From the NCBI GenBank assembly GCA_965228855.1, contig CBDDIJ010000005.1, positions 1,216,001 through 1,280,000 on the forward strand: DNA of 64,000 nucleotides, given 5' to 3'. How positions within the stretch are numbered: position 1 is the first letter of the stretch; the number at the start of each line of letters is the position of its first letter. Shown here piece after piece: positions 24,182 to 42,932 of this stretch. Origin of the DNA: Candidatus Obscuribacterales bacterium (GTDB taxonomy: Bacteria; Cyanobacteriota; Vampirovibrionia; Obscuribacterales; Obscuribacteraceae). Position numbers and translations under genes: made by a program. Under the pieces are notes generated by a model. That model did no database searches, was not told the origin of the DNA, and saw only the letters and a program-made list of their open reading frames with translations.

Positions 24182-27100
24182 GTGTCGTCATCTATCTTTC
24201 GAAGATTTTCGAGTAGCGCCAGGCTTGGTGACCTTTTGGTGCAGGCAGGCATTCTGACGCCTGCGCAGTTGCAGGAGGCGATGCGTTCATCGCGTTCGAA
24301 GAAGCTGCAAATCGGTCAAGTACTGGTAATGTCGGGCTATATGACCGCCCGCGACCTGCAGATTGTGCTTGAAGCGCAATCCATGTTGCGAGACCGTACT
24401 ATCGACCTCAACCTCGCTATTCAATGTATAAAAGTCGCCCGCAAAATCGGCGGTAATTTCTCGGATGTACTCGAGGATTACGACCAGAACGCCGCTCAGC
24501 GAGCGCGAACCGGCAAGCTCGGAGAGCTGCTGTTCGAAGCTGGTCTGGTAAGCGAAGAAGATTTATCAGAAGCGATGGAACGCAGTGTCAACACGGGCAT
24601 GCCCCTGGGGAGGATGCTTGTTTTAAACCGCATATTGCCCAGCGAAGTTCTTCAAAAAGCGCTTGAAGTACAAGTTCGTCTGCGCGATGAAGTTGTTTCA
24701 CGAGAAGAAGCAATACTGGAGTTACGTCAGGCAGCCGGTCTCGAAGGTGCACCTGCCGAACAACCCAAAGCCGAAGAGAAGAAAAAACCGCTTGTGCGGC
24801 TCGGCGAACTTCTGGTTATGGCAGGCATTCTGACTGAAACCGACGTCATGGATGCGCTTGAATGGGGGCTTGCCAATCAACAGCCGATTGGAGTCGTCCT
24901 GGTTTCGCAGGAGCTTATTTCGAAGGAACTTCTGGACGCAGCGTTGTTTTTCCAGGAAGCTGTTCGCGACGGAAAAATCGACGCTATGAAAGCGTGCGAA
25001 CTGTTGTCGGAAGTTTTCTCTACCGGTGTCAGCCCTGAAGAAGCTCTAGCCGAGGCGGCTCCCAGCAACAAACGCGAAGAACCGGAAGTTCCGCCTATTA
25101 CATATCAGCAATTGCTCACACTCTCGCGTGTTTGCACTGATGAAGATATTGAAAGCGCTTTTGAGTTGAAACGACACGGCGCCGCCCTGATTGGAAAAGT
25201 GCTGGTACTGACGGGCTTAATGGATGTGCCAACACTTCAAGCTACGCTGCGATGCTATCAAATGGTCGCGAAAGGTTGGCTCAATCCTGACGATGCAATT
25301 GCAACGCTCGATTACTGCCTTCACAAGGGTGACCAGATCATTTCATTCGAGCAAGGCTTGCGCGATCTGAAGTGGACGCCGGAAAGCGGGCTCAAGATGC
25401 GTGGCGAAGCCGGCACCGAAAGTAGTACCACTACGCCGAAAGTCTCCGAATCGAAAGCTCAAACCCCTGAAGAAAAGGAAGCCGCTCGCAAGGCGCTCAA
25501 AGAGTCGATTCGCAAAGTCACTGCTGAGGCACTGGGAGAGAGCGCATTGAGTCCAGCATCACCGGCGGAAGCGACAGTAGAAGAGCCGGCTCTCGCAGAT
25601 TCAGATGAAGACGATGATGATGACGAAGAATTCGTTCTGACAAATGTTTTGGAAAGAACGCTCGCCGAATCCGAGGCCGCCTCAAACGATCAGGTAGAAC
25701 AGGCAGAGTCAAAAGCCGCTGGTAAAGCGGCGGCAGAAAAAGCGGCAGCAAGCCTCTCGGAAAAGATTGCGGCGGAACGAGAACGCTCAGAAGCAGCTCA
25801 AGAGTCGGTAGCCGCGAAGAAGTCCGTCGAACCCTCCGCGGCTAAGTCAAAAAGAGGTAAGGACGCGGAGCATGCAGAAGCCGATGCAGAGCCGAAGTCT
25901 GATTTAGGCGCTCCAGCCGAAAGTAAAGCTGAAGCAGAATCGCAGCCGGCGGACGAAGACGACGCAAACGCTAAACCGACTCAAGAAGATAACGCAGACG
26001 AAGACGACGCTAAAGCTGCTGACGATGCTAAAGCCGCAGAAGAAGCCAAAGCTGCGGAAGAATCAAAATTGGCCGAAGAAGCCAGAGCTAAAGAAGAGGC
26101 CAAAGCTGCCGAAGAGGCCAGAGCTGCTGAAGAAGCCAGAGCTGCTGAAGAAGCCAGAGCTGCTGAAGAAGCCAGAGCCGCTGAAGAAGCCAGAGCCGCT
26201 GAAGAAGCCAGAGCCGCTGAAGAAGCCAAAGCTGCTGAAGAAGCTAAAGCAGCTGAAGAAGCTAAAGCAGCTGAAGAAGCTAAAGCTGCAACCGCTGCTA
26301 GCGAGGCCAAGGCAGCAGAGGAGGCTAAAGCGGCAGCCGAGCAAGCGGCTGCTGAGAAAGCAGCCGCCGAGAAAGCACCCTCAGAAGCTTCCTCTTCGCC
26401 AGAACCGGCTTCGGAGCTCGCTCCTGCAGCTAAATCAAGTCGCAAGAAGATGCCGGTTGACATGGATGAAGATGACGATAACGACACCAGAGTCGTCGCT
26501 TCCAGCGAACCATCATTGGCACGAGCATTAAACTCGTTATTTGACAACGGCTTCGACGATGATGAACCACCACTCTCATCGAACAACGACAAACTCACCG
26601 AGCCGCAAGAACGTGAAGCGGCCGAGCCTGCAGAAGAAAACTCTGCTGGTGGCCTCAAAAATCTCCTCCGAGGATTGATCGGTGACGAAGAAGACGACGA
26701 AGAACCCGCTGAGAAGCCGGCGGAAACCGCCAAAGCAGAAGTTTTTGCCGGCAGTACTGCCGCTAAAAAGGCAGCGAACGCAGCATCAAGTGGTAGCGCC
26801 GGTGGTTCTTCCGGCAAAGAAGTAATCGCAAAATCAGACGATGCCGAACCAACATCGACTAACGGCGAGTCCAAGCCGGATTCAGAGCTCAGTGAGATCG
26901 AGCGCGCAGAAGTGAAACTGGAAGAGACTGAGGCGAAAAATGACGCGATAAAAGATGAGGCGGACTCGGCAGAACCTGTAACCGAGCCGACCCCGGACGA
27001 AGTTGCAATTGAAGATATTGCAAAACTGTCCGCAGAACAGCTCCTCGTCGAAATCATGAAAACGGCCCAAAATCCGGAAATCAAAGTCACGTCCAAACGC

Positions 27101-27733
27101 GGCGGCAGATTCTCAGAAACAATCCTGCCCGAAGACGCCAAGGCAAGACAGCTGGCTAAGCTCGTCGGTAAGGAAGCCTCAAAAGATCTTGCTGAAAAAC
27201 TATCATTCGACCAGGCAGGTGAAAAGAGTGAAGAACCAGTAGACACCGCATTCGGACGCCTGGCTGAGACTTACTTTGAACAGGGCAACTACAAGGAAGC
27301 TCAAGTCATTTACGAACGTATGCTCGTCAACCGGCTCAACGAGCTGGGTCCAGACAACCCGGCCCTCGTCGAAGACTACAATAACCTGGCGATGACGCTT
27401 TGTGTTCAGGGTCGCTTTGATAAAGCGGAGCCGTTCATGAAACGAGCTGTCCACCTGTACGAAAGCGCCCCAACCCAAGATCAGATAGAGTTTGCAGACT
27501 ACCTGCACTCACTCGGCACCATCGAATATAAGCTTGAAAAACACAAAGATGCCGAAGAAATAATGCTACGCGTTGTGAGTATCCGACGAGAATCTCTGGA
27601 AGAGGATCACGAGGACATCGGCCGCGCACTGGCAGATTACGCCAAAGTTTTGAAAAAGCTCGGCAAAGACGAATCGGCTGAGTCCATATACAAAAAGGCT
27701 CGCGAAATTTTAAAGAAGCACCGCGATAAGTGA
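24182..27733 (+). CDS. Tandem MshEN-like (c-di-GMP-binding) domains + acidic/Ala-rich linker + C-terminal TPR domain
   Basis: RLGDLLVQAGIL, KLGELLFEAGLV, RLGELLVMAGIL, each paired with a second xLGxxLV...Q half-motif. Kinesin-light-chain-type TPRs at the C-terminus. Confidence 0.8.
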   Translation: MSSSIFRRFSSSARLGDLLVQAGILTPAQLQEAMRSSRSKKLQIGQVLVMSGYMTARDLQIVLEAQSMLRDRTIDLNLAIQCIKVARKIGGNFSDVLEDYDQNAAQRARTGKLGELLFEAGLVSEEDLSEAMERSVNTGMPLGRMLVLNRILPSEVLQKALEVQVRLRDEVVSREEAILELRQAAGLEGAPAEQPKAEEKKKPLVRLGELLVMAGILTETDVMDALEWGLANQQPIGVVLVSQELISKELLDAALFFQEAVRDGKIDAMKACELLSEVFSTGVSPEEALAEAAPSNKREEPEVPPITYQQLLTLSRVCTDEDIESAFELKRHGAALIGKVLVLTGLMDVPTLQATLRCYQMVAKGWLNPDDAIATLDYCLHKGDQIISFEQGLRDLKWTPESGLKMRGEAGTESSTTTPKVSESKAQTPEEKEAARKALKESIRKVTAEALGESALSPASPAEATVEEPALADSDEDDDDDEEFVLTNVLERTLAESEAASNDQVEQAESKAAGKAAAEKAAASLSEKIAAERERSEAAQESVAAKKSVEPSAAKSKRGKDAEHAEADAEPKSDLGAPAESKAEAESQPADEDDANAKPTQEDNADEDDAKAADDAKAAEEAKAAEESKLAEEARAKEEAKAAEEARAAEEARAAEEARAAEEARAAEEARAAEEARAAEEAKAAEEAKAAEEAKAAEEAKAATAASEAKAAEEAKAAAEQAAAEKAAAEKAPSEASSSPEPASELAPAAKSSRKKMPVDMDEDDDNDTRVVASSEPSLARALNSLFDNGFDDDEPPLSSNNDKLTEPQEREAAEPAEENSAGGLKNLLRGLIGDEEDDEEPAEKPAETAKAEVFAGSTAAKKAANAASSGSAGGSSGKEVIAKSDDAEPTSTNGESKPDSELSEIERAEVKLEETEAKNDAIKDEADSAEPVTEPTPDEVAIEDIAKLSAEQLLVEIMKTAQNPEIKVTSKRGGRFSETILPEDAKARQLAKLVGKEASKDLAEKLSFDQAGEKSEEPVDTAFGRLAETYFEQGNYKEAQVIYERMLVNRLNELGPDNPALVEDYNNLAMTLCVQGRFDKAEPFMKRAVHLYESAPTQDQIEFADYLHSLGTIEYKLEKHKDAEEIMLRVVSIRRESLEEDHEDIGRALADYAKVLKKLGKDESAESIYKKAREILKKHRDK
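26015..26284 (+). repeat. In-frame 18-bp tandem repeat encoding AAEEA(R/K)
   Basis: 10 near-perfect GCnGCnGAAGAAGCnA(G/A)A units at 26105-26284 (6x AAEEAR, 4x AAEEAK), plus 5 degenerate units upstream. Confidence 0.95.
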
Positions 27734-29513: not shown

Positions 29514-29660
29514 ATGAGCGACTCCGCAACCTACGAGTACGACACAAGAGGTCGTCTCAAGAAGATCACCTACCTCAACGGTACGACCATCCAGTACAAC
29601 TATGACAACGCGGGCAACCGCACGTCCGTGGTGACGACCTGCAGCGGCAGCGGATGCTGA
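29514..29660 (+). CDS. Stand-alone mini YD/Rhs-repeat protein, 48 aa (MSDSATYEYDTRGRLKKITYLNGTTIQYNYDNAGNRTSVVTTCSGSGC)
   Basis: Two textbook YD repeats (YEYDxxGRL, YNYDxAGNRT), AAGGA RBS at 29501-29505, C-ending codon bias like the Rhs gene. Missed by the ORF track. Confidence 0.85.
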   Translation: MSDSATYEYDTRGRLKKITYLNGTTIQYNYDNAGNRTSVVTTCSGSGC

Positions 29661-29888
29661 GCTTGCTGGTACACCTGATGTTTGTTTAGTGACGTAATCG
29701 CCTCAGCGGTTTCGTCACACCATAGTAGTTGCTGCGATTTCAATACAGCTGTTTGGTCAGAACTTCAGTAATCGCTGAGGTCCTCCGCAGCTGTTGACGT
29801 TCGCGCTTAGCGGCGCGCAAATCAAAACATCCTCAACCGGCCGCTCGAAAAGTTCTCGAAGAAAATTCCTTATAGCGATTCGCGCCGA

Positions 29889-29914
29889 GCCGCATCCATT
29901 GAATTGGATGCGGC
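29889..29914 (+). terminator. Hairpin between mini-YD gene and Rhs (attenuator/processing site candidate)
   Basis: GCCGCATCCA-ttgaat-TGGATGCGGC 10-bp stem with a weak U-tail. Confidence 0.4.
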
Positions 29915-29920
29915 GTCTTC

Positions 29921-32900
29921 GTGCGCCCGCATGAGGAGCGAGATTGGAGCGGCCATCAACCGAAAGATGGAATCACCAATATGCCGACAAAAGACAAGCC
30001 GAAGCGTTCCGAAGTCCAGACTCCCGGACTTTACGCCACCCCCAAGCAGCGCTCAGTGAGCCCGAGCGCGGCTCGTCCGATGATCGAAGGACGAACAATG
30101 CCAGGCAACATTTATGTTCCAGGCAAAACCCCCTCTCCCAGAGCAGCGATTTCGGGAGTCTCGGACACGGCGATCGTTTTGAATACGACCGCAAATGCCC
30201 TGGATATTCCCGGCGGACAGGTCGACTTGCTCAACGGACAAGACAATTTGCTCGACGGGCAGGTCGACTTGCTCGAAGGCAAGCAGAACAAACCCGAGAT
30301 TCTGGCGGCGACTTCGCCGGGTTTTGCGAGCAACCGTTCCAGCGGTCCGGAGAGCATCACCGAAATGGCCCGTGCTCTCAAAAACGACGTTGATCTGATC
30401 TTCAACTTCGTCCACGACAACATCGAATTCATCCCGACTTTCGGCAGCCAGAAGGGCGCGCTGGGCACGCTCATCGACGGCTTCGGCAACGCCTTCGATC
30501 AGTCCGAATTGATGATCGCGCTCCTGCGCGAAAGTGGTGCCTATACGTGCAGCTTCCAGTTCGGCGAACTCCAGCTTACCGCAGCACAGGCCGCCGCATG
30601 GCTCGGTAACGACCCGGGCAGCATCTGGGCGGCATCGAACCTGCTGGGTAACCTCGGCGTCCCCAACGAGACGAGCTGGACCGGCACCGAATGGGTTCTG
30701 CGCCTCAGCCACTGCTGGGTGAAGGTTCTCATCGCCGGCACTTACTACCACTTCGACCCGGCGATGAAGGCCTACACGAAGATTGACGGCATCGACCTCG
30801 CCACGGCGATCGGTTACAACGCCACGACCTTCATGTCGAGTGCCACCAGCGGCGCCACCATCACCTCCAACTACGCCCAGAACCTGAATCGCACGAATGT
30901 GCGAAACAACCTGGCGACGATGGCGAACACGCTGGTCACCTACATCAATACGAACGCACCGACCGCGACGACCGACGATATCCTCGGCGGTCGCACCATC
31001 GACAAGCAGACCACCCAGCTGCGCCAGACCGCCCTGCCGTATCTGCGCCCAAGCACGACGCCGACCACCTGGACGGACATCCCGAACAGCTACAAGGCAA
31101 CACTCGGGGTGCTCTATGACACCATCAACGTGAGTTTCTACTCAAAGGACATCCACGGCAAGCGACTCACGCTGTTCTTCAACGCCTCGCATCAGGCTGA
31201 GCTGCGTCTCGATGGCACGCTGATCGCAACCAGCAGCGCTCAGACGCCGGGCAGCTGGAACTCAGTCCTGCTCTCGATAACGCATCCCTATCCCTACACG
31301 TGGTGGGACCAGAGCTTCTGGCAAACGGTTTGGGAAGGCAAGCCCTACCTGATCGCGCAAGCCTGGGGTAATGCCGGTCGCAACATGACCGAGATTCACC
31401 GCGAGAGACTCAACCAGGCGATCTACAACGGCTCGGCGTCCGACTCTGAAGTGGTGCTCGGCGAAGCTCTCTCCGTGCGCTGGCACACCTGGAACTCACA
31501 GAAGAGCTGGACGTGCGACGTCTTCAATCGCATGACCCAGTGCACGACGGTACTCCAGCACCAGGTCGGTATGGTCGGCTGGTACGACACTCCGATTATG
31601 GACCTCGGCGGCATCGAATGGTCGAGCGGCGCCCTCGATAACAACTACGATAACGTCAATACCAACGACACCGCGCTCGCCATGCACGGCATCGCCTTCG
31701 AAGCCGGCACCATCGAGCAGATCTGCGGCATCGGCGGCATCAGCTCAACGACGATCCTCGACAAGGCCGTCCAGGACGGCAAGAAGATCTACCACGGACG
31801 CAGCGACAACTGGTCCGCAAGCGTTCGACCGAACCTGACCAACTACGATAGCCAGACTCTCGATGACATCGAAAACTGGTACCTCAACTATGGTTGGAAG
31901 GTTGCGATTCCTGAGGACGGAAATGTCGCCGTTCAGGACTTCCGAGGTTTCGGCTACTACGCAATCAGTCCCTGGCAGGGCGCAATCGGCATCTTCAGCG
32001 GCTACCTGAAGGGCGGCATGGGCGCCGTCGGTCAAACCATCAACATTATGGTTCCGAAGACCGGTGGCGCCAGCGTCAATCCGAGCTCTGATACGCAGCC
32101 GCATTGCACCAACAACGTATCGGCCGACCCGATCGACATGTACCGCGGCGCGTACCTCTATCGCAATACCGATGTCACCGTAGGTAGTGGCAGCAATCCT
32201 TACAGCCTGAGCTTCGAGCGCTTCTACAACTCGGGCGCACGCCTGGCGAACGGTCCTCTGGGTCTGGGTTGGAACCACAACTGGAACCACAGCCTGGCGG
32301 TAAACAGCGACGGTCTGCTTGCCATGGCGAACGCCTCGCCCCTTGCCGGCGCCTCCGGTCTGGTGGCCATGTTCGTCACAGTCGACCTCTACCGCGACCT
32401 GAACAAGCCCATCGACAAGTGGGTAACGGTCGCTCTCACGAATCGCTGGTTGCTCGATCAATCGCGCGACAACACGGTCGTCGTCAGCACGCCCGGCGAC
32501 ACCCAGTTCTTCGTCAAGCGAGCCAACGGCTCCTACATCGCGCCTGCAGGCGAGCCGATTTCGCTCGTCAAAAACGTCGGCGGCGATTGGACCTACACCA
32601 ACTCGCATCAGGTGAAGACCAACTACGACTCTTCCGGGAAGATCACTTCGATGGTCTATCCGCAAGGTGTGACGCTCACCTTCACGTACACGAGCGGCAA
32701 GCTCACGAAGGTCGCGAACGGTTTGACCCGCGAGCTCAACTTCACCTACACCGGAAGCAAGCTCACGGGCGTGACGGCCGGGTCGAGTTCGGTTTCATTC
32801 GCGTACTCGGGCGACAACCTGGTCACTGCGACCGACCCGGACAGCAAGAACACCACCTACGTCTACGACATTCCCGGTCGCATGACGCAGATGTTCCGCC

Positions 32901-35764
32901 CGGCCAATCCTTCAAGCGCGATCATGACCAACGTCTACGATACGCTTGGACGCGTTCAGACGCAGACCGACGGGTCCGGCAACGTCTGGACTTACTACTT
33001 CGCAGGCTGGCGGTCGGAAGAGAAGAACCCGACGAATGCCAGTCGCGTTCAGTATTTCGACGGCGACGGTAACGTCACGATCGAAACAGACGCACTCGGC
33101 AACGACACAAAAATGTCGTACGACGGGCTTGGCAGGCTGATTGAGAAAACATTCGACGAAGGCAATCGTCGGTTGTTCACCTACGACGCCAACCACAACA
33201 TCCTGACGGTGACCGACAAACCGAAGCCCGGCTCGCTGGATCCGGACATCGTCAAAACGTACACGTACAACGCCACCTTCTCCAAGGTAGCAACGGAAAC
33301 CGACGGGCTCGGCAACGTCACGACTTACCAGTACAACGCCACGACCGGCACGCTCACCAAGAAGATTTTCCCGACGGTCGACGGCGTCGCCGCGGAGCTT
33401 AACTTCACCTACAACGCCCGCGGTCAGGTTTTGACCATCACGGACCAGACCGGCATGGTCACCGCGTTCGTCTACAGCGGCACAAACGAAACGCTCACCT
33501 CGGTGAAGAAAGACTCGGGCACGGGCAAGCTCAATCTGCTGACCCAGTTCGCGTATAGCACCGCCGGCGATGTCACAAGCATTACCGACCCGCGCGGATA
33601 TGCGACTTCGTTCACCTACGACAACGTGCGACGCCTCAAGCAGATTACGCCACCCTCGCCGTTCGCCGCGAACATCACGAAGTACACGTATGACGCCAAC
33701 GGCAACCGCACCAAGGTCGAGCGCTACGCGGGCGCCGGTCCGGTCTACCAGACGATTAACGCAAGCTACACGGTCGACAACCTGCTTGCCACTATGACCG
33801 ACCCGTCCAGCAACGTCACCACGATGACGTACAACAGCTTGCGTCAGCTCTGGAAACGAACCGACGCTCTGAGCCGCATCACGACCTTCACCTACGACCA
33901 GGTCGGCCGGCTCGCCACCGTCACGGACTCGTCCGGCACGCTGGCAGAAACGCGCTCCTACACGGCGAACGGTCTGCTCGCATCGCTGTTGGACCAGCGC
34001 AGCAAAACGACCACATTCGAATACGACGGCTTTGATCGGTTGAAGAAGCGCACGTTCGCGGACGCGACCTTCGAGTCGTTCACCCACGATAAGAACGGAA
34101 ACGTCCTGACCAAGGTCACTCGCAAGGGCGACACGATCACGAACACGTACGACGGTCTCAACCGTTTGCGCACCAAAGCGCCGGCGGGCATGGCGACTGT
34201 GACATATGCCTACGACCGCGCCAATCGACTCCTGAGCGCTCAAACGCCGGTGGTCTCGGGCGATCCGTCGACCGGCAAGATCGAGTTCACCTACGATGCT
34301 GCTGGACGGCGCCTGACCGAAAAGTATCCGGACGCGAAGACCGTCACCTACAAGCTCGATGCCAACGGCAACGTGACGAAGCTGACCTACCCGGGCGGAT
34401 ACTACGTCTCGCGTACGTACGACCAGCTCAACCGTTTGACGCAGATCAAACTGAACGGAGCGGGCAGTGCGGCTCTCACCTTCAGCTACGACGTGCTCGG
34501 TCGGCGAACCGCGCTCGGATACGGAAACGGAACCAGCACGACCTACACGTATTCGCTCGACGACATGCTGACCGCTCTGACGCAAACATTCTCCGGCTCC
34601 TCCGTCGCCTACTCCTATGGGTACGACGCAGCCCACGAACTGACCAGTCAGGGTGTCACCGACAGCAACTACATGCGTCATCCGTCCGGCGGTGGAACCG
34701 TCAACTATGGTACCGCCAATGATGTCAACGAATACCCGACGGTCGCAGGTGTCAGTCAGACCTACAATGCCAACGGCTGCCTCACCGGCGACGGCGTCTG
34801 GACTTTCGGCTACGACAACGAGAGCCACCTGACCTCCGCTGTCAAAACCGGCGTCAACGTCGCGTTCAGCTATGACGCCCTCGGTCGTCAGACCCAGAAG
34901 GATGTCGGCGGAACCAAGACGCGCTACATCTACAGCGGCTTCCAGCGCCTGGCCGAATACAACACCGCCGGGTCTCTGACCTCGCGATTTGTCTACGGCG
35001 ATGGCATGGACGAACCGTTGATTGTGTTGAACGCGAGCAACGTGATCACTGCTTACCTGCACCACGACAGCCTCGGCAGCATCGTCGCCACCTCCAACAC
35101 GAGCGGCACGGTGACCAACAAGAACAAATACATGCCGTGGGGCGAGGGCACCGTGTCCGGTACCACCTTCGGGTTTACCGGACAGCGCTATGACTCGGAA
35201 ACGGACTTGTACTACTTCAAGAACCGTTACTACTCGCCCGCGCTCGGCCGCTTCCTGCAGCCGGACCCGGTGTTGTACGACGACTCGCTGAACACGTATC
35301 AGTACGCACGCAACAACCCGCTCTCGCTGGCGGACCCCTATGGTCTGTCTGCTGAATCTATCAATTCAAGCGTAAACGTCGGCAGTTCGAGCGTGGTCGG
35401 TGCCATCGGAACCGGCGGCGCAACGGGTCTGTCGGGCAACACTTCAGTCGGCTCCGCCTCGCTGGGCTATGGCAACGCCGGCGGCTGCACCTGCGCCTGC
35501 GGCGACGGCGGTGGCTCCGGAGGTGGAAGCACCGACGGAAATAGCGTCGGCAACGGCAACACCGGCAATGGCACCAATGGCGGTGGCGCCAGCATCTACG
35601 GCAACTACGGGAATGGAAACGGCAACTCCGACGACGGCTCCGGCGACACCATCTACTTCGACGGACTCGACGTCTACAACCGGATCGCACCATGTGTTGG
35701 GAAATGCGTCCTAGAAGGGGGCAAACTGCAAGATTGTATTTTCATATGTTTCCATGGAGGATAG
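29921..35764 (+). CDS. Rhs/YD-repeat protein with N-terminal transglutaminase-like domain, DUF6531, Rhs core and short Cys-rich C-terminal cargo
   Basis: IFNFVHDNI..KGALGTL..GNAFDQ..HCWV..FDP; ADPIDMYRG..FERFYNS..GPLGLGWNH; many YD repeats; FTGQRYD..RYYSP..GRFLQPDP..YARNNP..DPYGL. True start is probably ATG 29981 or ATG 30098 (AAGGA RBS). Confidence 0.92.
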   Translation: MRPHEERDWSGHQPKDGITNMPTKDKPKRSEVQTPGLYATPKQRSVSPSAARPMIEGRTMPGNIYVPGKTPSPRAAISGVSDTAIVLNTTANALDIPGGQVDLLNGQDNLLDGQVDLLEGKQNKPEILAATSPGFASNRSSGPESITEMARALKNDVDLIFNFVHDNIEFIPTFGSQKGALGTLIDGFGNAFDQSELMIALLRESGAYTCSFQFGELQLTAAQAAAWLGNDPGSIWAASNLLGNLGVPNETSWTGTEWVLRLSHCWVKVLIAGTYYHFDPAMKAYTKIDGIDLATAIGYNATTFMSSATSGATITSNYAQNLNRTNVRNNLATMANTLVTYINTNAPTATTDDILGGRTIDKQTTQLRQTALPYLRPSTTPTTWTDIPNSYKATLGVLYDTINVSFYSKDIHGKRLTLFFNASHQAELRLDGTLIATSSAQTPGSWNSVLLSITHPYPYTWWDQSFWQTVWEGKPYLIAQAWGNAGRNMTEIHRERLNQAIYNGSASDSEVVLGEALSVRWHTWNSQKSWTCDVFNRMTQCTTVLQHQVGMVGWYDTPIMDLGGIEWSSGALDNNYDNVNTNDTALAMHGIAFEAGTIEQICGIGGISSTTILDKAVQDGKKIYHGRSDNWSASVRPNLTNYDSQTLDDIENWYLNYGWKVAIPEDGNVAVQDFRGFGYYAISPWQGAIGIFSGYLKGGMGAVGQTINIMVPKTGGASVNPSSDTQPHCTNNVSADPIDMYRGAYLYRNTDVTVGSGSNPYSLSFERFYNSGARLANGPLGLGWNHNWNHSLAVNSDGLLAMANASPLAGASGLVAMFVTVDLYRDLNKPIDKWVTVALTNRWLLDQSRDNTVVVSTPGDTQFFVKRANGSYIAPAGEPISLVKNVGGDWTYTNSHQVKTNYDSSGKITSMVYPQGVTLTFTYTSGKLTKVANGLTRELNFTYTGSKLTGVTAGSSSVSFAYSGDNLVTATDPDSKNTTYVYDIPGRMTQMFRPANPSSAIMTNVYDTLGRVQTQTDGSGNVWTYYFAGWRSEEKNPTNASRVQYFDGDGNVTIETDALGNDTKMSYDGLGRLIEKTFDEGNRRLFTYDANHNILTVTDKPKPGSLDPDIVKTYTYNATFSKVATETDGLGNVTTYQYNATTGTLTKKIFPTVDGVAAELNFTYNARGQVLTITDQTGMVTAFVYSGTNETLTSVKKDSGTGKLNLLTQFAYSTAGDVTSITDPRGYATSFTYDNVRRLKQITPPSPFAANITKYTYDANGNRTKVERYAGAGPVYQTINASYTVDNLLATMTDPSSNVTTMTYNSLRQLWKRTDALSRITTFTYDQVGRLATVTDSSGTLAETRSYTANGLLASLLDQRSKTTTFEYDGFDRLKKRTFADATFESFTHDKNGNVLTKVTRKGDTITNTYDGLNRLRTKAPAGMATVTYAYDRANRLLSAQTPVVSGDPSTGKIEFTYDAAGRRLTEKYPDAKTVTYKLDANGNVTKLTYPGGYYVSRTYDQLNRLTQIKLNGAGSAALTFSYDVLGRRTALGYGNGTSTTYTYSLDDMLTALTQTFSGSSVAYSYGYDAAHELTSQGVTDSNYMRHPSGGGTVNYGTANDVNEYPTVAGVSQTYNANGCLTGDGVWTFGYDNESHLTSAVKTGVNVAFSYDALGRQTQKDVGGTKTRYIYSGFQRLAEYNTAGSLTSRFVYGDGMDEPLIVLNASNVITAYLHHDSLGSIVATSNTSGTVTNKNKYMPWGEGTVSGTTFGFTGQRYDSETDLYYFKNRYYSPALGRFLQPDPVLYDDSLNTYQYARNNPLSLADPYGLSAESINSSVNVGSSSVVGAIGTGGATGLSGNTSVGSASLGYGNAGGCTCACGDGGGSGGGSTDGNSVGNGNTGNGTNGGGASIYGNYGNGNGNSDDGSGDTIYFDGLDVYNRIAPCVGKCVLEGGKLQDCIFICFHGG

Positions 35765-35826
35765 AGCAGACTCGGAGGTAATAAGCGGCGCCACAAATTC
35801 CGCTGCTTGAGGGGAAATTAGCCATT

Positions 35827-35857
35827 GGTAGGCGAGCAGAAGTGGTGCTCGCCTACC
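35827..35857 (+). terminator. Strong hairpin downstream of Rhs
   Basis: GGTAGGCGAGCA-gaagtgg-TGCTCGCCTACC perfect 12-bp stem, no long U tract. Confidence 0.55.
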
Positions 35858-35962
35858 CTCTCCACACGAAATCTGATTCAAATCTCCTAACTTGGTGTGT
35901 TGTGACAGTTAAGTACAGTGCGACTGGGTACAATAGCTACGTCACCACTCAAGTTGAAGAGC

Positions 35963-36685
35963 ATGGACGCGAAACAAATCATTGACGCGATGCGAGAAAA
36001 CTATCTTCGGTGCACATCCTACGAAGACCGCGGTTCGATCAGCAGTGTAAGTCGAACTCTCGCTAAAGACAAAGTACTCACCGGAAATTTCACAACCACT
36101 TTCATTCGTCCGAATTTACTCAAATTTGAGCTGAGCACAGATGAGGATGGACTGAAACGGCACTTCATACTTCAGGCTGATGGCGACTCGGTGCGGGCGT
36201 TCAAAGAGTATTCTCCAGAGGTGAAGCCTGTAAATACGACGGTGTTTGATTCTTTCAAAGGTGCGCTCCAAACCGTTGGCGGGATCACCGAAAACGTCAC
36301 CAACACAGTATTTTCGCTTCTGGGTGAAATCAATCCTAAATACTCCCTCTTAAATGCGAGCACACTGCAACGAGCCGATGATGAAATTATAGAGGCAGTT
36401 CCCTGTTATAAAATTGAGTTTGTTATAGACCCATTCGTCGCAAGCGAGGGAACTGCCTGGGTATCAATTGATTCATTCTCACTACGGAGATTAGAAGAGA
36501 GAACGGTTTACACGCAGGAGTTTAATGCCTTCGCGATAGAACAAACAAAACCTTTTCTTGAGGCAGAGGAAATATCCTTTAACGAAGAGGATCTGCACAT
36601 CAGCCTTACCCGCATCTTCAGTTTCGCAGAGGTCACTTTCAACAACAGCATTAGTATCGACAAAATTACAGACCGCAATTTCTGA
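35963..36685 (+). CDS. LolA/DUF2092-like fold protein, paralogue 1 (putative immunity)
   Basis: 240 aa. Family motifs Y..C.SYED.G, F.RP.L..F, LQ.DG.S, CY.I, AW.S, FNNSI. No signal peptide. Confidence 0.75.
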   Translation: MDAKQIIDAMRENYLRCTSYEDRGSISSVSRTLAKDKVLTGNFTTTFIRPNLLKFELSTDEDGLKRHFILQADGDSVRAFKEYSPEVKPVNTTVFDSFKGALQTVGGITENVTNTVFSLLGEINPKYSLLNASTLQRADDEIIEAVPCYKIEFVIDPFVASEGTAWVSIDSFSLRRLEERTVYTQEFNAFAIEQTKPFLEAEEISFNEEDLHISLTRIFSFAEVTFNNSISIDKITDRNF

Positions 36686-36764
36686 AGTGATCGACAATTC
36701 GAAATCGACCTGCACTAACCAACCTAGATTGAACGCATTATTTAAGAGGCACGAGACAAAACAG

Positions 36765-37490
36765 TTGGAAGCAAAAAATATTCTTGACGTAATGCTCGAA
36801 AATTACGTTCGCTGCTCTTCCTATGAGGATGTTGGGAATGTGGTTGACGTTGAAGAGACGACATTGGGCGAGAGAGTAACAACTGGTAAATTCCGCACTA
36901 CGTTTATTCGCCCTGACTTGCTGGCATTCAATTTGGAAAGTGAAAATACGTTTGGTAATCATCGATTTCTTTTGCAGTCTGATGGAGAATCAATTAGAGC
37001 AATGAACTCGAGAATTTCAACGGATGGTGAGCAGAAACTGGTTACACAGGCTTACCCGTCACTGCCAGAAGCACTTTATACACAAGCTGGCTCTACGTTA
37101 GGAATAACTTCTCTGACATTCGGCTTGCTCAACGTCATCAATATGCTCTACGACATCCGAAATGCGGAAAATATTGAGCGCTTAGATGATGAAGCGCTCG
37201 ATGGGATAAGCTGCTATCGTCTGGCGGCGCTTATAAATCCGTTCGTCCGATATGAATCAGACGCCTGGATTGCAACAGACACGTTTCACCTCGTTAGATA
37301 CGAGCTCCGAACCGTTTTGACGGAGGAATTTCGAGAGTCCATAAAAGCTCTTGAGAAGACCGTTTCGCAGGCAGAGGGTATCACGGACGATGGGGTCGAA
37401 GCAATTGGTCGAACCCAAACCACTCACTATGAACGAGTAGTTTTCAATAATAGCATCACGATCGATAGGATTGTCGACAATCATTTTTAG
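36765..37490 (+). CDS. LolA/DUF2092-like fold protein, paralogue 2
   Basis: Start set at TTG 36765 by alignment to paralogue 3 (same leader GAGGCA..GACAAAACA.TTG). 241 aa. Confidence 0.75.
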   Translation: MEAKNILDVMLENYVRCSSYEDVGNVVDVEETTLGERVTTGKFRTTFIRPDLLAFNLESENTFGNHRFLLQSDGESIRAMNSRISTDGEQKLVTQAYPSLPEALYTQAGSTLGITSLTFGLLNVINMLYDIRNAENIERLDDEALDGISCYRLAALINPFVRYESDAWIATDTFHLVRYELRTVLTEEFRESIKALEKTVSQAEGITDDGVEAIGRTQTTHYERVVFNNSITIDRIVDNHF

Positions 37491-37679
37491 AAGAAGAGAA
37501 ACGCCGCTCCCATTGCTATGACCTATAATCGAGACTATCATACCGTTCTTCATAGATCGCGCCTCAACCATCTAGCATCAAATATGGTGCCCACTCCCCC
37601 GCAGAAGCATTCAGCCTTAATCAATAGCGGAAGACGCAATTCACGAGCGTGCCACCAGGCATAGAGGCAGACAAAACAC

Positions 37680-38405
37680 TTGGAAGCAAAAAATATTCTT
37701 GACGCAACGCTTGAAAATTACGTTCGATGCAATTCTTATGAGGATGAAGGTCGAGTAGTTGAGGTGAGCAAAACAACTGCGAGCGAACGAGTTGTTAAAG
37801 GAGCGTTCTCGACCATCTTTATTCGTCCAGACCTAGCGCGCTTCGACCTACGATGTTCGACCGATCCCGGTCGACATAGCCTGATTCTTCAAGCTGATGG
37901 GGATTCGACGAGAGCGATGTATACCATTGAAAAATCTACCGCCGAAAGCACAACATCTACACAAGCCTATCCATCGCTTCGGGACGCACTTCTAACATAT
38001 GCCGGTTTCACTTCTGGAGTTACGCCAACCACATTCGGCCTGCTGAGCGAGATAAAGATGGCTTACGACATCAGGAATGCAAAAGACATCCACAGATTGC
38101 CAAACGAAACCGTCAGCGATATTGAATGCTACAGACTATCTGCGGTGATTGATCCAGAGATCCGATATGATGCAGACGCATGGATTTCGATTGACACTTT
38201 CTGCGTCGTAAAGTACGAAAAGAGGACGACGATGACAGAGAAAACTCGGGACGCCACGCGAAAGCTAGCGGAGCAATTCCGGAAGTCCGAGGAAATCCCA
38301 GACAATGGAGCAGAGTTCCTCTATTCTAGTGCAACAATTTGGTACGACCGAGTTGTTTTCAACAACAGCATAACAATCGACAAGATCATATCCAATCAGC
38401 TTTAA
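37680..38405 (+). CDS. LolA/DUF2092-like fold protein, paralogue 3
   Basis: 241 aa, same family motifs. Confidence 0.75.
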   Translation: MEAKNILDATLENYVRCNSYEDEGRVVEVSKTTASERVVKGAFSTIFIRPDLARFDLRCSTDPGRHSLILQADGDSTRAMYTIEKSTAESTTSTQAYPSLRDALLTYAGFTSGVTPTTFGLLSEIKMAYDIRNAKDIHRLPNETVSDIECYRLSAVIDPEIRYDADAWISIDTFCVVKYEKRTTMTEKTRDATRKLAEQFRKSEEIPDNGAEFLYSSATIWYDRVVFNNSITIDKIISNQL

Positions 38406-38433
38406 GCTCGAAGTTCCCAGCAGGATTACGAAG

Positions 38434-39168
38434 TTGAACGCAACGCAAATTATCGAGGCAGTTCGTGCCAATTATATTAAGTGCGCTTCTTACGAGGATA
38501 AGGGTACAATCAAGGTCACAAACAAAACCCGCATCAAAGAAAGCGTCACCAGGGGAACCTTCTCACATTTATTCGTTCGCCCCAACCTTCTTAAGTTTCA
38601 GCTAAACACGGAAGATGATGTACTTAAGCGGCGTTTTCAACTTCAGTCGGACGGAGATTCTGTTAGAGCAATTGAAGATTTTGAGCCAGATGGGATAAAG
38701 CCAACCAGAACTGAAGCATATAGCTCATTACACACGGCACTGAGAACGGTAGCCGGAGTTACGTTTGGAGTGACGAATGCAGTATTCTCACTTCTTGGAG
38801 AAGCAAATCCAAAATATTCTTTGGTCAACGCACTCGAGGTGCGAAGGGCAGAGGACGACACAATCAACAACCTGCCCAGCTATAAAATCGAATGCATGCT
38901 TGACCCGCTCGTATCAATCGAAGCAACAGCCTGGATTTCGATTGACACGTTCTCATTGCTGCAATATGAGCAACGTTCATCCTACACAGCGGAGTACCTG
39001 AGATTCGTTAAAGAACAGACTAAGATTTTTTTTGAAGCCGAGGGACTGCCAAGTTTAAGCGAGGAAAGCGAGTCTCTCAGCAGTGTTTACAAAATCAGAT
39101 TTGGTGAAGTCACGTTCAACAACAGTATCAACGTTGACAGAGTGCTAAACAACAGCCCTCTAGAATGA
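38434..39168 (+). CDS. LolA/DUF2092-like fold protein, paralogue 4
   Basis: 244 aa, same family motifs. Confidence 0.75.
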   Translation: MNATQIIEAVRANYIKCASYEDKGTIKVTNKTRIKESVTRGTFSHLFVRPNLLKFQLNTEDDVLKRRFQLQSDGDSVRAIEDFEPDGIKPTRTEAYSSLHTALRTVAGVTFGVTNAVFSLLGEANPKYSLVNALEVRRAEDDTINNLPSYKIECMLDPLVSIEATAWISIDTFSLLQYEQRSSYTAEYLRFVKEQTKIFFEAEGLPSLSEESESLSSVYKIRFGEVTFNNSINVDRVLNNSPLE

Positions 39169-39341
39169 GAATTTGACACACAAACTTAACGAGACTACTG
39201 AGGCGTTGTAGTTTCCGTACATCGTCGATTCAATGCGGTAAATTTGAGCTACTTTTGCAGCCGAAGAAGGTTGGCGAGCCATCGCCTTCCATTCTATAAA
39301 AACAGCTGTCGAGATTTGGAAGGAGACTTCAGGCTTCCTAA

Positions 39342-39370
39342 TTGACACTACCTACGGTGCTTACTATAAC
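39342..39370 (+). promoter_or_regulatory. Near-consensus sigma70 promoter inside the paralogue array
   Basis: TTGACA (39342-39347), 17-nt spacer, TATAAC (39365-39370). Confidence 0.65.
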
Positions 39371-39596
39371 GCAAAGTATAAGAGCTACGTATACATTCTA
39401 CGTAACCAATGAGACTGAACGTCTGAGCGAAACGTTTTATGACAGTTAGAAGAAGCCAGCAAGCCACAAACGTACCGAAATTTCGCAGACATTTTTACAC
39501 CGTCGAGTGTCGGCCATTTTTCATAGCTGCAAATCGGCCGCTGCGCCCGGGGTACAATATTTTCATCACCAGTTCTTTCAGTAAACAAAAGAGACC

Positions 39597-40313
39597 ATGG
39601 AAGCAAACCAGATAATTGATGCAATGCGAGCAAACTATATACATTGCTCGTCCTATGAAGACGTCGGCTCCGTGCGCATTGTTACTCAGACTCAAGCTTC
39701 GGAAAAATTACTCATTGGAAATTTTGCCCACGTTTTTTTACGACCAGATCTCTTAAAGTTGGAGCTTTTCACAAAGGAACAGGAAGTTGAACGACGATTC
39801 GTTATCCAATGCGATGGAGACTCCGTCCGTTCATTCGAGGAACATAGTACTCAGGGGACGAATACATTTGCATACGACTCGTTTGCATCGGCACTCAAGA
39901 CTACAGCCGGGATCACGGCCGGAGTTACTAATGTTGTGTTCTCGCTTCTCGGTGAAATCGATCACGGATATTCGATGTTAAATGCAAATCAAATGAAGAG
40001 AACTGATGACCAAGTCCTAGATGGACAAGTTTGTTTCACTATTGACTTTGTTATAGATCCCACAGTTTCAATTGAGGCAACGGCTTGGATATCCGCTGAC
40101 AACTTCTCACTGATGAAATTTGAACAGAGATCAAATTTCACTGCCTCCTACCGAGATTCCATACGAGAGTATGCCCGGATGTTTTACGAAGCCGAAGGAA
40201 TACCAATGAAGGACTCGGACGAGGCAATCACCAGAGAAATGATAATCAAGTTCGACAATATTACTTTCAACAACAGCATAAACGTCGATAAGCTGATAAG
40301 CCATGTCTTCTAG
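39597..40313 (+). CDS. LolA/DUF2092-like fold protein, paralogue 5
   Basis: 238 aa, same family motifs. Confidence 0.75.
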   Translation: MEANQIIDAMRANYIHCSSYEDVGSVRIVTQTQASEKLLIGNFAHVFLRPDLLKLELFTKEQEVERRFVIQCDGDSVRSFEEHSTQGTNTFAYDSFASALKTTAGITAGVTNVVFSLLGEIDHGYSMLNANQMKRTDDQVLDGQVCFTIDFVIDPTVSIEATAWISADNFSLMKFEQRSNFTASYRDSIREYARMFYEAEGIPMKDSDEAITREMIIKFDNITFNNSINVDKLISHVF

Positions 40314-40453
40314 CTACTTTCGCTTGCAACCAGCGCACATGCAGGGCCTAGCTGGAGTTGCCCAAGCGAGAACACCAGCGCGCGAGAAGGGAGGAAAACC
40401 AGGTCAAACGATACCTCTCTGCAAAGACTTTGACAAAGCGCTAACAGGTTCTG

Positions 40454-41182
40454 ATGGACGCCAAACTAATTATCGATGCGATGTTGCAGAATTACCGGCG
40501 GTGTACTTCATACGAAGATACCGGAGAGGTCCTTGAGTTGATTAAGTATGGTGACCGTGAGCAAGTAAACGTTGGTCATTTCTCAACGACATTCGTTCGA
40601 CCCGACCTGCTGAAATTTGAACTGCGAATGCGAGAGTTTGATAATCAGCGTCGTTTCGTATTACAATCAGACGGAGAGGCGATACGTTCACTGGAGGTCA
40701 TTAGCGGACCTTCTCGAGACGATACCACGTCAGTCAGAGCTTACGATAACTTCGAGGCTTCGCTACAAACTGTAGCTGGTCAAACCAAAGGAATCACCGC
40801 CCTGAACTTCTCGCTGATAGGAGCGCTTCCAAAGTCCCGCCAGTTCCACGAAGTGAACACGATTATCCGGAACGATGACGATACAGTCGACGGAATTCTC
40901 TGCTATAAGATTGAGTCTCAAATAGACCCACTTGCGGGAGTCGTGGCAACCGCTTGGATTTCTGCGAGCGACTTTTCCATACGAAAATATCAACTCGACA
41001 CAGTTTTCAGCGAGCAATTCCTGGTCGCTGCCAAACACTCAGCCCGACAATTAGCCAAGGCGGAGGGATATGAATATGACGGAAAGAACGAGTGCGTCGG
41101 GTTTGTTCACACTTTCAATTTCCTGGAGACGACATTTAACAACAGCACCAACATAGATAGGATCACCACTGAGTTTTCGTAG
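40454..41182 (+). CDS. LolA/DUF2092-like fold protein, paralogue 6
   Basis: 242 aa, same family motifs. Confidence 0.75.
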   Translation: MDAKLIIDAMLQNYRRCTSYEDTGEVLELIKYGDREQVNVGHFSTTFVRPDLLKFELRMREFDNQRRFVLQSDGEAIRSLEVISGPSRDDTTSVRAYDNFEASLQTVAGQTKGITALNFSLIGALPKSRQFHEVNTIIRNDDDTVDGILCYKIESQIDPLAGVVATAWISASDFSIRKYQLDTVFSEQFLVAAKHSARQLAKAEGYEYDGKNECVGFVHTFNFLETTFNNSTNIDRITTEFS

Positions 41183-41256
41183 CCCCAGAACAAAAACACG
41201 TGATCGCTTCGGAATGAAAGTACAACGTTAGCCAGACTCACCGCAAGATTAAGAAA

Positions 41257-41979
41257 ATGGACGCGAAACAAATCATTGACGCGATGCGAGAAAACTATCT
41301 TCGGTGCATATCCTACGAAGACCGTGGCTCGATCAGCCGTGTAGGTCGAACTCTCGCTGAAGACAAAATACTTAGCGGAAAATTTACCAACACCTTCATC
41401 CGTCCGAATTTACTCAAATTTGACCTGACTACGGATGAGGACGGGCTGAAACGGCACTTCATGCTTCAGGCTGATGGCGACTCGGTACGGGCGTTCGACG
41501 AACACAGCCCAGACGTAAGACCTGTACAAACGCTTGCGTTTGATTCTTTCAAAGGTGCGCTCCAGACCGTTGGCGGGATCACCGAAGGCGTCACAAACAC
41601 AGTGCTTTCACTTCTGGGTGAAATCAATCCTAAATACTCCCTCTTAAATGCGAGCACACTGCAACGAGCCGATGACGAGATTATCGAGGCAGTTCCCTGC
41701 TATAAAATTGAGTTTGTAATAGACCCATTCGTCGCAATCGAGGGAACTGCCTGGGTATCCATTGATTCATTCACGCTGCGGAGACTAGAAGAACGAACGG
41801 TTTACACGCAGGAGTTTGGTGCCTTCGCGATAGAACAAACAAAAATTTTCCTTGAGGCCGAGGGAATATCCCACAACGAAGAGGACCAACCTATCAGCCT
41901 TACCCGCATTTTCAGTTTCGCAGAGGTCACTTTTAATAACAGCATTAGTATCGACAAAATTACAGACCACAGATTCTGA
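41257..41979 (+). CDS. LolA/DUF2092-like fold protein, paralogue 7 (close copy of paralogue 1)
   Basis: 240 aa. About 30 substitutions versus paralogue 1 by manual alignment, no indels. Confidence 0.75.
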   Translation: MDAKQIIDAMRENYLRCISYEDRGSISRVGRTLAEDKILSGKFTNTFIRPNLLKFDLTTDEDGLKRHFMLQADGDSVRAFDEHSPDVRPVQTLAFDSFKGALQTVGGITEGVTNTVLSLLGEINPKYSLLNASTLQRADDEIIEAVPCYKIEFVIDPFVAIEGTAWVSIDSFTLRRLEERTVYTQEFGAFAIEQTKIFLEAEGISHNEEDQPISLTRIFSFAEVTFNNSISIDKITDHRF

Positions 41980-42239
41980 CACCCCCATGCATATCCATCA
42001 CTGCTGTTCGATTCTTAGTCGGCGATACAACAGCATAGCGCTAGAGCCAGGTCAGCCGGATTAGACCTCCAGGGCGGGATGCGATTGATACTACAGGCGG
42101 TGCCTACGGTTAACGTCTAGTAAAATCTCCAAAGAGCCTGATGGAAAAGTAATTAACAGCAACGAACCAATGCGTGGAGAATGACTGCGAATCGGGCAGA
42201 ATATTTTCAGGCAAACTCTACTTTCATTTGGAGAACAGA

Positions 42240-42932
42240 ATGCTACCGAAATCATTGCTCGGCGTGCTCGCAGGATTATTGTTAGTTGCCCCTGCATTCT
42301 CTCAACCCAGCCCGGAAGAGTCTCTTCAGCGACTGAAGGAAGGGAACAAGAGCTACTTGAACGGGATTCAGCGGTTTCCAAAGATCGATCCGATCCGACG
42401 GCTAAAGACCGCTGTTGAAGGCCAGAGGCCAATCGCAACAGTGCTTGGATGTTCCGACGCGAGGGTGCCGGTAGAGGTAGCTTTCGATAAAGCGTTCGGC
42501 GATCTCTTCATCGTCCGCGTGGCAGGGAACGTCTGCCAGATGGCGGAGTTGGCATCAGTGGAGTACGGCGTTAATTATTTGAAGACGCCGCTAGTAGTGG
42601 TGCTCGGGCACACCAAGTGAGGTGCCGTGCATGCGGCAGCGCAAGGCACTGAGTTAAGCGGCAGCTTGCCGAAGCTCATGGCGGAGATTCGTCCGGCGAT
42701 AGACGCTACGCGGCGCAAACATCCTGAGCTCAAAGGCGAAGCGCTGGCCGAGGCTGCTGTTGACGAAAACGTCTGGAAATCGATTGAAGATCTTCTGGGC
42801 GGTAGCGAACCCATCAGAAAAGCCGTCCATGAAAAACGTGTCCTTATTGTCGGTGGTGTCCGTGATATAAAGACGGGCAAGATTACTTGGTTGGGCGAAC
42901 ATCCTGAGCAAGCGCGCCTGGTTGCGCAATAA
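42240..42932 (+). CDS. Secreted beta-class carbonic anhydrase with in-frame TGA at the HxxC Zn ligand (possible selenoprotein or pseudogene)
   Basis: GGAGA RBS, signal peptide (..APAFS/Q), LKEGN, GQRP, GCSDARV, GDLFIVRVAGN, VLGHTK-TGA(42618-42620)-GAVHAA. The same frame continues to TAA 42930-42932. Confidence 0.85.

Follow-up and report, generated by a model that had tools for sequence, protein, structure and literature searches.

Gene content of the Rhs locus

The DNA analyzed here (the window) is a 64,000-nucleotide stretch from a Candidatus Obscuribacterales bacterium whose genome assembly comprises 8.2 Mb and is 95% complete. At positions 29514-41979, a co-oriented gene cluster contains a stand-alone YD gene, an Rhs gene, and seven paralogous genes, p1 to p7. 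The cluster is real. Its gene order, a YD gene of 48 amino acids (aa), an Rhs protein of ~1900 aa with a DPYGL motif, and seven genes of ~240 aa, had been described in an earlier sequence-only reading and was confirmed by open reading frames (ORFs) and Pfam profiles. As that reading also stated, signal peptides are lacking: a hydrophobic signal or transmembrane (TM) stretch was absent from all nine proteins of the cluster. Promoter and terminator scans of the locus gave no matches above chance level. The features are listed in Table 1. For comparison, 107 genomes of the order Obscuribacterales were used as the sample; G labels denote genomes and L labels denote loci.

Table 1. Features of the Rhs locus (window coordinates)
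Feature	Position	Strand	Basis or remark
YD/RHS beta-hairpin gene, 48 aa, C-terminal TCxGxxC	29514..29660	+	Pfam RHS_repeat E 1.6e-10
Rhs carrier, 1927 aa from likely ATG	29981..35764	+	ORF back to GTG 29921 = 1947 aa
Transglutaminase-like domain, aa 146-280	30356..30760	+	Pfam PF01841
DPYGL autoproteolysis motif (PLSLADPYGL), aa 1805-1809	35333..35347	+	PxxxxDPxGL consensus (PMC3150448, available part)
Cargo linker, Gly/Ser/Asn-rich, CxCxC cluster	35348..35667	+	Sequence
Exchangeable tip, CX3C-X9-CX3C, predicted helix-turn-helix, ~30 aa	35668..35764	+	Motif, model, strain comparison
p1, LolA-fold, DUF2092-like, candidate cognate partner of window tip	35963..36685	+	Model pLDDT 96
p2, paralogue; first behind different tip in G043	36765..37490	+	Strain comparison
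p3, paralogue	37680..38405	+	Alignment
p4, paralogue; two pieces in G043	38434..39168	+	Strain comparison
p5, paralogue	39597..40313	+	Alignment
p6, paralogue; first in X6 contig; shortened in G043	40454..41182	+	Strain comparison
p7, paralogue, 88% identical to p1	41257..41979	+	Alignment

The Rhs carrier, whose 1927-aa form has an entry in the protein collection, begins with a low-complexity leader. This is followed by a transglutaminase (TGase)-like domain, DUF6531, the YD shell, the Rhs-associated core, the DPYGL motif, and the C-terminal cargo. The Transglut_core match was weak (E 3e-4, under the cut-off). At the position that we take, from the GxCxDxA pattern, to be that of the catalytic Cys, this residue is absent; the domain reads G-N-A-F-D-Q-S there and retains the His motif HCWV. 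A motif tally found A, S, P, or Q at this position in the window carrier and its relatives, and the domain is judged from these residues to be catalytically inactive.

The cargo behind DPYGL comprises 138 aa, 39 of which are Gly. The "micro-peptide cargo" of the earlier reading has to be corrected in this respect, as the C-terminus that would be released has the full 138 aa and the Cys hairpin is only its last ~30 aa. The first ~40 linker codons are strain-variable too (joint at 35358-35481). A model of the tip (35 aa) gave a helix-turn-helix with a pLDDT of 78. The four Cys are invariant among tips and the remainder is variable; the shortest cargo has 37 aa (L059). The G+C content at third codon positions is 0.59 in the tip versus 0.80 in the shell, and the paralogues likewise lie below the shell. 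Structure searches with the 35-aa tip model yielded no significant matches, nor did comparison of the tip sequences with Pfam and the PDB, in which the best Pfam E was 0.19 (alpha-hairpinin, one of nine tips).

All seven paralogues are intact, with lengths of 238-244 aa and pairwise identities of 37-88%. The LolA fold assigned to these genes by the sequence-only reading was supported by the p1 model, which matched LolA (4mxt) with a Z of 15.3, an rmsd of 3.1 over 168 aligned residues, and a Foldseek E of 5e-8. LprG, VioE (Z 12.8), MucB, and RseB were among the other structural matches. DUF2092 was matched by 41 of 128 aligned relatives, and p1 itself had no Pfam match. From the missing signal peptide, the paralogues are predicted to be cytoplasmic. 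The downstream genes indeed form one expanded family, as had been noted, rather than alternating C-terminus/immunity pairs; no orphan tips lie between the paralogues of the array.

Joint exchange of the tip and the first downstream gene

In the sister strain G043, the Rhs gene is 95-99% identical to that of the window, the tip diverges, p1 is absent, and p2 stands first. One comparison (X5) shows the tip of G043 at 35667. Another contig (X6) departs from the window at the same position, 35667, and rejoins it at the start of p6 after 461 other letters, with the array reordered. In two further loci, L114 and L116, p1 comes directly behind the tip of the window. The L116 shell is ~85% identical, whereas the identity just behind the tip and at the p1 start is 99-100%, a pattern that an assembly chimera could also produce. 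The tip exchange point lies at ~35667, at the linker end. The 90% cluster of the window Rhs protein has 12 members, of which 9 are complete at the end, and contains four tip alleles, all four Cys being kept, on shells that are 94-100% identical. A further comparison at the tip joint (X4) was discarded because half of its pieces run into unrelated letters; its loose end at 35668 meets a stop.

The covariation of tip and paralogue anticipated by the earlier reading was thus observed as a change of the first paralogue with the tip (G043 and X6), and the tip proved variable rather than invariant, with four alleles on near-identical shells. Judged from these comparisons, the joint switching of tip allele and first gene is the behavior of a polymorphic toxin/immunity pair, and the pattern fits a cognate antidote together with a bank against kin variants. 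In the G043 array, p4 is split and p6 is shortened, which suggests that spare paralogues decay.

Co-occurrence of the tip motif and the LolA-like family

The association was also counted across 108 distinct Rhs C-termini, mostly from Obscuribacterales, with two open-ended rows left out. All 12 C-termini with the strict motif had a LolA-like gene within 2.2 kb, 11 of them within 400 bp. Among the 96 C-termini without the strict motif, three had such a gene behind them; two of these are Cys-hairpin variants, and L156 is a true exception. The strict motif was expected in 0.175 of 108 shuffled C-termini and was observed in 12. For the 98 C-termini that entered the sample only by way of their YD gene or Rhs core, the family was present in 6/6 with the motif versus 1/92 without it. 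The pair of tip and family was found in seven genera, and the weak neighbors in L060 and L096 matched a profile built without them (E 4e-15 and 1e-6, respectively). L036, which has both the tip and the neighbor, stands outside the 108 because it lacks DPxG. Near L075, an apparent Cys motif was dismissed, as it lies in the wrong frame.

Rhs proteins of a shorter form were also seen. L078 (2188-3609) and L083 (6293-7648) encode proteins of 450-470 aa in which the N-terminus is hydrophobic and an Rhs core and a hairpin tip are present, and these genes adjoin a TPR-metallopeptidase gene and the paralogue family.

The YD gene and the TGase-Rhs protein as a general carrier

YD protein matches were found in 66 of the 107 genomes, matches within Rhs genes counted. 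A YD-hairpin gene lies 4.8-8.6 kb upstream of 64 of 71 long Rhs cores (drawn from 150 of 462 Rhs-core matches), in 57 cases as a short frame. The YD-TGase-Rhs carriers of the order bear many unrelated C-termini, including long enzyme-like tails, and the sister Rhs proteins of the carrier family have long unrelated C-termini and different downstream genes. Read from these neighborhoods, the YD gene and the inactive-TGase Rhs protein are a general carrier, and the YD gene is present whatever the cargo. The three-part unit proposed earlier as a new system was not supported in this form, since the YD gene and the TGase-Rhs protein carry many other cargoes. Of the proposed co-occurrence in related genomes, the link between tip and family stood, and the YD gene turned out to be general to the carrier instead of a tip-specific partner.

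A signal peptide or TM stretch was found in 3 of 56 carriers of the order, and another match was read as an ORF-extension artifact. In the same three loci the YD protein also has a signal peptide, which suggests that the two proteins travel together. The YD and Rhs pair was also seen in Azoarcus, Variovorax, Burkholderia, and Paraburkholderia; judged by eye, the two proteins have signal peptides there.

Variants of the YD gene and of its surroundings were noted as well. YD genes in L055, L058, L061, L064, L072, L100, and others have an added N-terminal repeat of the YQAAPF type, and some other YD genes are fused to proteins of 330-750 aa. In L001 (15405-16492), a lipoprotein gene and the gene of a small membrane protein with the motif YFEKLxKYIP lie near a YD-Rhs locus, and similar genes are found upstream in L179-L181, L184, L186, L189, L191, and L193. 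A holin-like role for these recurrent genes was rejected, as they have no Pfam match and are absent from the window locus. The window's own genome also has a 716-aa Rhs fragment that lacks a hairpin and ends in an enzyme-like tail of 176 aa (G000:C5:1616939-1619089; L002).

Distribution of the LolA-like family

On a quick tree with long branches, p1-p7, the G043 copies, and two unplaced proteins form one clade (SH-aLRT 98). This clade adjoins single copies of the same genus, so the array appears to be a lineage-specific expansion; in this tree the L115 rows are marked solo though their contig begins inside an array. Elsewhere one paralogue copy follows the tip, and among the genomes examined only G043 otherwise has an array. 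Six of the 40 family loci examined have an upstream Rhs core, three of these having been chosen for adjacency; to the three not so chosen, L087 adds a fourth, broken case. Distant family domains sit within longer multi-domain proteins. For RseB and MucB, LolA-fold matches of p1, structures with a partner peptide exist, and lipid carriers are also among the relatives. In L095 (18109-19087), a YD gene is followed directly by a gene of the paralogue family, and the Rhs gene between them is absent.

Delivery machinery and LanC-LanB sister loci

Profiles for PAAR, VgrG, phage sheath, and EagR/DcrB gave 0 matches in the 95%-complete genome, with positive controls. The SpvB/TcB-type profile PF03534 also gave 0 matches in the genome; TcA families were not searched for. 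The absence of PAAR, VgrG, EagR, and TcA/TcB partners claimed by the sequence-only reading was upheld by this genome-wide profile search for PAAR, VgrG, EagR, and SpvB-type TcB. Likewise, the type III profile PF00771 and the VirB4-type profile PF03135 gave 0 matches in the genome, and a route of either type was rejected; three secretins are present, but the carrier has no signal peptide.

The same genome has a second YD-Rhs locus (C2:585082-590776), which is followed by LanC and LanB, and the same LanC-LanB order stands behind Cys/Ser/Thr-rich tails in G086 and G030. A YD gene, a TGase-Rhs gene, LanC, and a full LanB were read in G000:C2:580648-590776 (L001:4649-14777) and also in L042 and L102. 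The tail of the Rhs protein in these loci could be the precursor of a lanthipeptide. The next gene in L001 encodes an S41-type peptidase, and L102 has a similar-looking gene.

Proposed mechanism and alternative explanations

We consider it probable that the cluster is a polymorphic Rhs toxin locus armed with a small, non-enzymatic peptide: the hairpin would act as the toxin, p1 would hold it sequestered in the cytoplasm, and the spare paralogues would be directed at the alleles of kin. The Rhs chain would enclose its own C-terminus in a YD shell and, as expected from its family, would cut itself at the DPYGL motif. The 48-aa YD protein, which co-occurs with the carrier, may bind as a detached piece or lid of this shell. 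The cargo would consist of a flexible linker and the four-Cys helical hairpin as its active, presumably toxic part; once oxidized, the hairpin probably has two nested disulfides. The first downstream LolA-fold protein, genetically paired with the tip, would bind the hairpin in the cytoplasm and keep it sequestered, probably within its pocket, and the six other paralogues would cover the tip alleles that kin strains carry. The tip and the first gene would be exchanged together through recombination at the end of the linker. Release by lysis or another route is a guess, given that a signal peptide, a type VI secretion system (T6SS), and a Tc partner were not found.

Several observations weigh against this reading. 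The LolA-like family was found in 71 of the 107 genomes, six further copies lie away from Rhs genes in the window's own genome, and several solo family clades look vertically inherited on the quick tree. An Rhs core lies upstream of only 3 of 37 family loci that were not pre-selected, so that the family is largely unlinked to Rhs genes, which is in part the outcome that the earlier reading had named as speaking against it, and is linked in these three. The motif was fixed after the first loci had been inspected, and related genomes are not independent, so that a P value for the association does not amount to a test. Of three new adjacencies for which the motif had been predicted beforehand, one had the strict motif and two had Cys-hairpin variants; in addition, L156 has a family gene behind a Cys-free tail, and L036 has kept the tip and the neighbor and lost DPxG. 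The net charge of the tips ranges from -6 to +4, which makes a common cationic membrane mechanism unlikely. Finally, the three sister loci have the biosynthetic LanC-LanB pair in the "immunity" slot.

The LanC-LanB genes behind the same carrier keep alive the explanation that the LolA-fold protein serves in maturation or loading and would hold, fold, or modify the hydrophobic hairpin before packaging. LanC and LanB occupy the same slot behind a Cys/Ser/Thr-containing tail in the own-genome C2 locus, G086, and G030, the biosynthetic protein VioE shares the fold, and C17 is invariant across the seven paralogues. However, C17 is not one of the columns that are nearly invariant when 128 members are aligned, and the locus has no other candidate gene for self-protection. 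Moreover, a maturation role leaves unexplained six extra divergent copies without a substrate gene, as well as their shuffling and decay. We regard this explanation as unlikely.

Still less probable, in our view, is that the tip is an identity or signaling peptide for kin recognition, with the paralogues as intracellular receptors of own and foreign variants. Tips that are small and non-enzymatic, vary strongly, and differ in charge would suit such a role, the regulatory proteins RseB and MucB share the fold, and the distant multi-domain relatives are compatible with it. However, the paralogues are single-domain proteins with no output domain, a linked regulator is absent from the locus, and long enzyme-like tails are found among the other cargoes of the carrier.

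An inert tip remnant with a chance expansion of an unrelated small-ligand-binding family behind the Rhs genes would account for the solo majority of family members, the restriction of the array to the window's lineage on the quick tree, and the deviating loci L156 and L095, but is improbable given the four invariant Cys amid a variable tip (12 motifs versus 0.175 expected), the linked copies in more than one part of that long-branched tree, and the first gene that switches with the tip.

Beyond the toxin/immunity reading of the window locus, we tentatively suggest, as a possibility that is more doubtful than probable, that the Obscuribacterales carrier is a leaderless two-chain nanocontainer for bacteriocin-like peptides. 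These would be disulfide hairpins with allele-specific cytoplasmic LolA-fold antidotes and, in the sister loci, lanthipeptides that LanB/LanC would produce in situ at the tail of a protein of ~1,900 aa. If true, this would connect the delivery of polymorphic toxins with peptide antibiotics. Known Rhs cargoes are mostly enzyme domains; a ~30-residue four-Cys peptide would rank among the smallest of them, and as an immunity protein, a cytoplasmic LolA fold would be of a new kind. The sister LanC-LanB loci hint that peptides modified by enzymes can be Rhs cargoes as well. The natural matched pairs (window tip/p1, G043 tip/p2, and the third tip/p6) make specificity testable. For this host group, represented here only by uncultured assemblies, the locus offers a first look at its competition.

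Comparison with known systems

The comparisons in this section hold for the available part of each cited text. The window locus has YD repeats, an Rhs-associated core, PxxxxDPxGL, a variable C-terminus, and a co-changing downstream gene, the features of Rhs/YD polymorphic toxins. In the RHS toxins with an inactive TGase domain, which has lost at least one of C, H, and D, a signal peptide or TM helix is said always to precede this domain (PMC3482391). The window carrier resembles them in its dead TGase domain, RHS array, variable C-terminus, and dedicated downstream gene, but differs in the missing signal peptide, the separate YD gene ahead, and the ~30-aa four-Cys tip. By its sequence features, we assign it to this class, the signal peptide excepted.

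With the Rhs-CT/RhsI modules and orphan arrays (PMC3150448), the locus shares the PxxxxDPxGL boundary and the swapping of the C-terminus and first downstream gene between close strains. In the window, however, the main exchange lies ~107 codons past DPYGL, and the partner genes are kept without orphan tips. The paralogue array is like the homogeneous polyimmunity loci, such as tandem SUKH paralogues (PMC3482391), in being a divergent one-family tandem array of strain-variable number and order, whereas its family is LolA/DUF2092-like; the term "LolA" does not occur in 300,000 of the 357,715 characters of that article.

The likeness of p1 to the LolA superfamily (LolA, LprG/LppX, RseB/MucB, VioE; Pfam DUF2092) lies in the fold (Z 12-15). 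Unlike these proteins, p1 has no signal peptide and has a variable helix at 185-201, with an identity of about 10%. The LolA lipoprotein carrier proper has a Sec signal peptide and a periplasmic site, in contrast to the paralogues, which have no signal peptide.

Plant alpha-hairpinins have the motif C-X3-C-X4-20-C-X3-C and a helix-loop-helix (PMC11591084), and the tip shares this Cys pattern and, in its predicted structure, the helix-loop-helix. The tip, however, is bacterial and fused to an Rhs shell, and a significant sequence or fold match is absent; the resemblance is taken as a likeness of form alone.

In the T6SS- and Tc-associated Rhs containers, the YD shell encloses a C-terminal cargo that is cut at DPxG[LWF] (bioRxiv 10.1101/2024.02.26.582050). 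The window carrier has a predicted shell and a cleavage motif of this kind, but PAAR, VgrG, EagR, sheath, and SpvB are unmatched in its genome.

As far as these texts go, the carrier type (PMC3482391), the exchange of the tip (PMC3150448), and single-family immunity arrays (PMC3482391) are already known. The hairpin tip, a LolA-fold antidote or immunity protein, and an Rhs-fused lanthipeptide as suggested by the LanC-LanB loci were not found described in the literature searched, which consisted mostly of open-access texts with supplements outside the search; the additional file of PMC3482391 could list such neighborhoods.

Neighboring genes in the window

Behind the array, a carbonic anhydrase gene (42174-42932) has an in-frame TGA where two relatives carry a Cys codon. 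SelA and tRNA-Sec are present in the genome, but the TGA more probably reflects a single-base error or a nonsense change. Upstream of the locus, positions 24182-27733 encode a protein of 1183 aa that contains a long tract of Ala/Glu/Lys repeats and ends in a TPR-like region, and this upstream position is kept in two relatives. Further upstream, an ORF of 980 aa (3298-6240) presumably encodes a restriction-modification-type DNA methyltransferase, which it resembles in its motifs.

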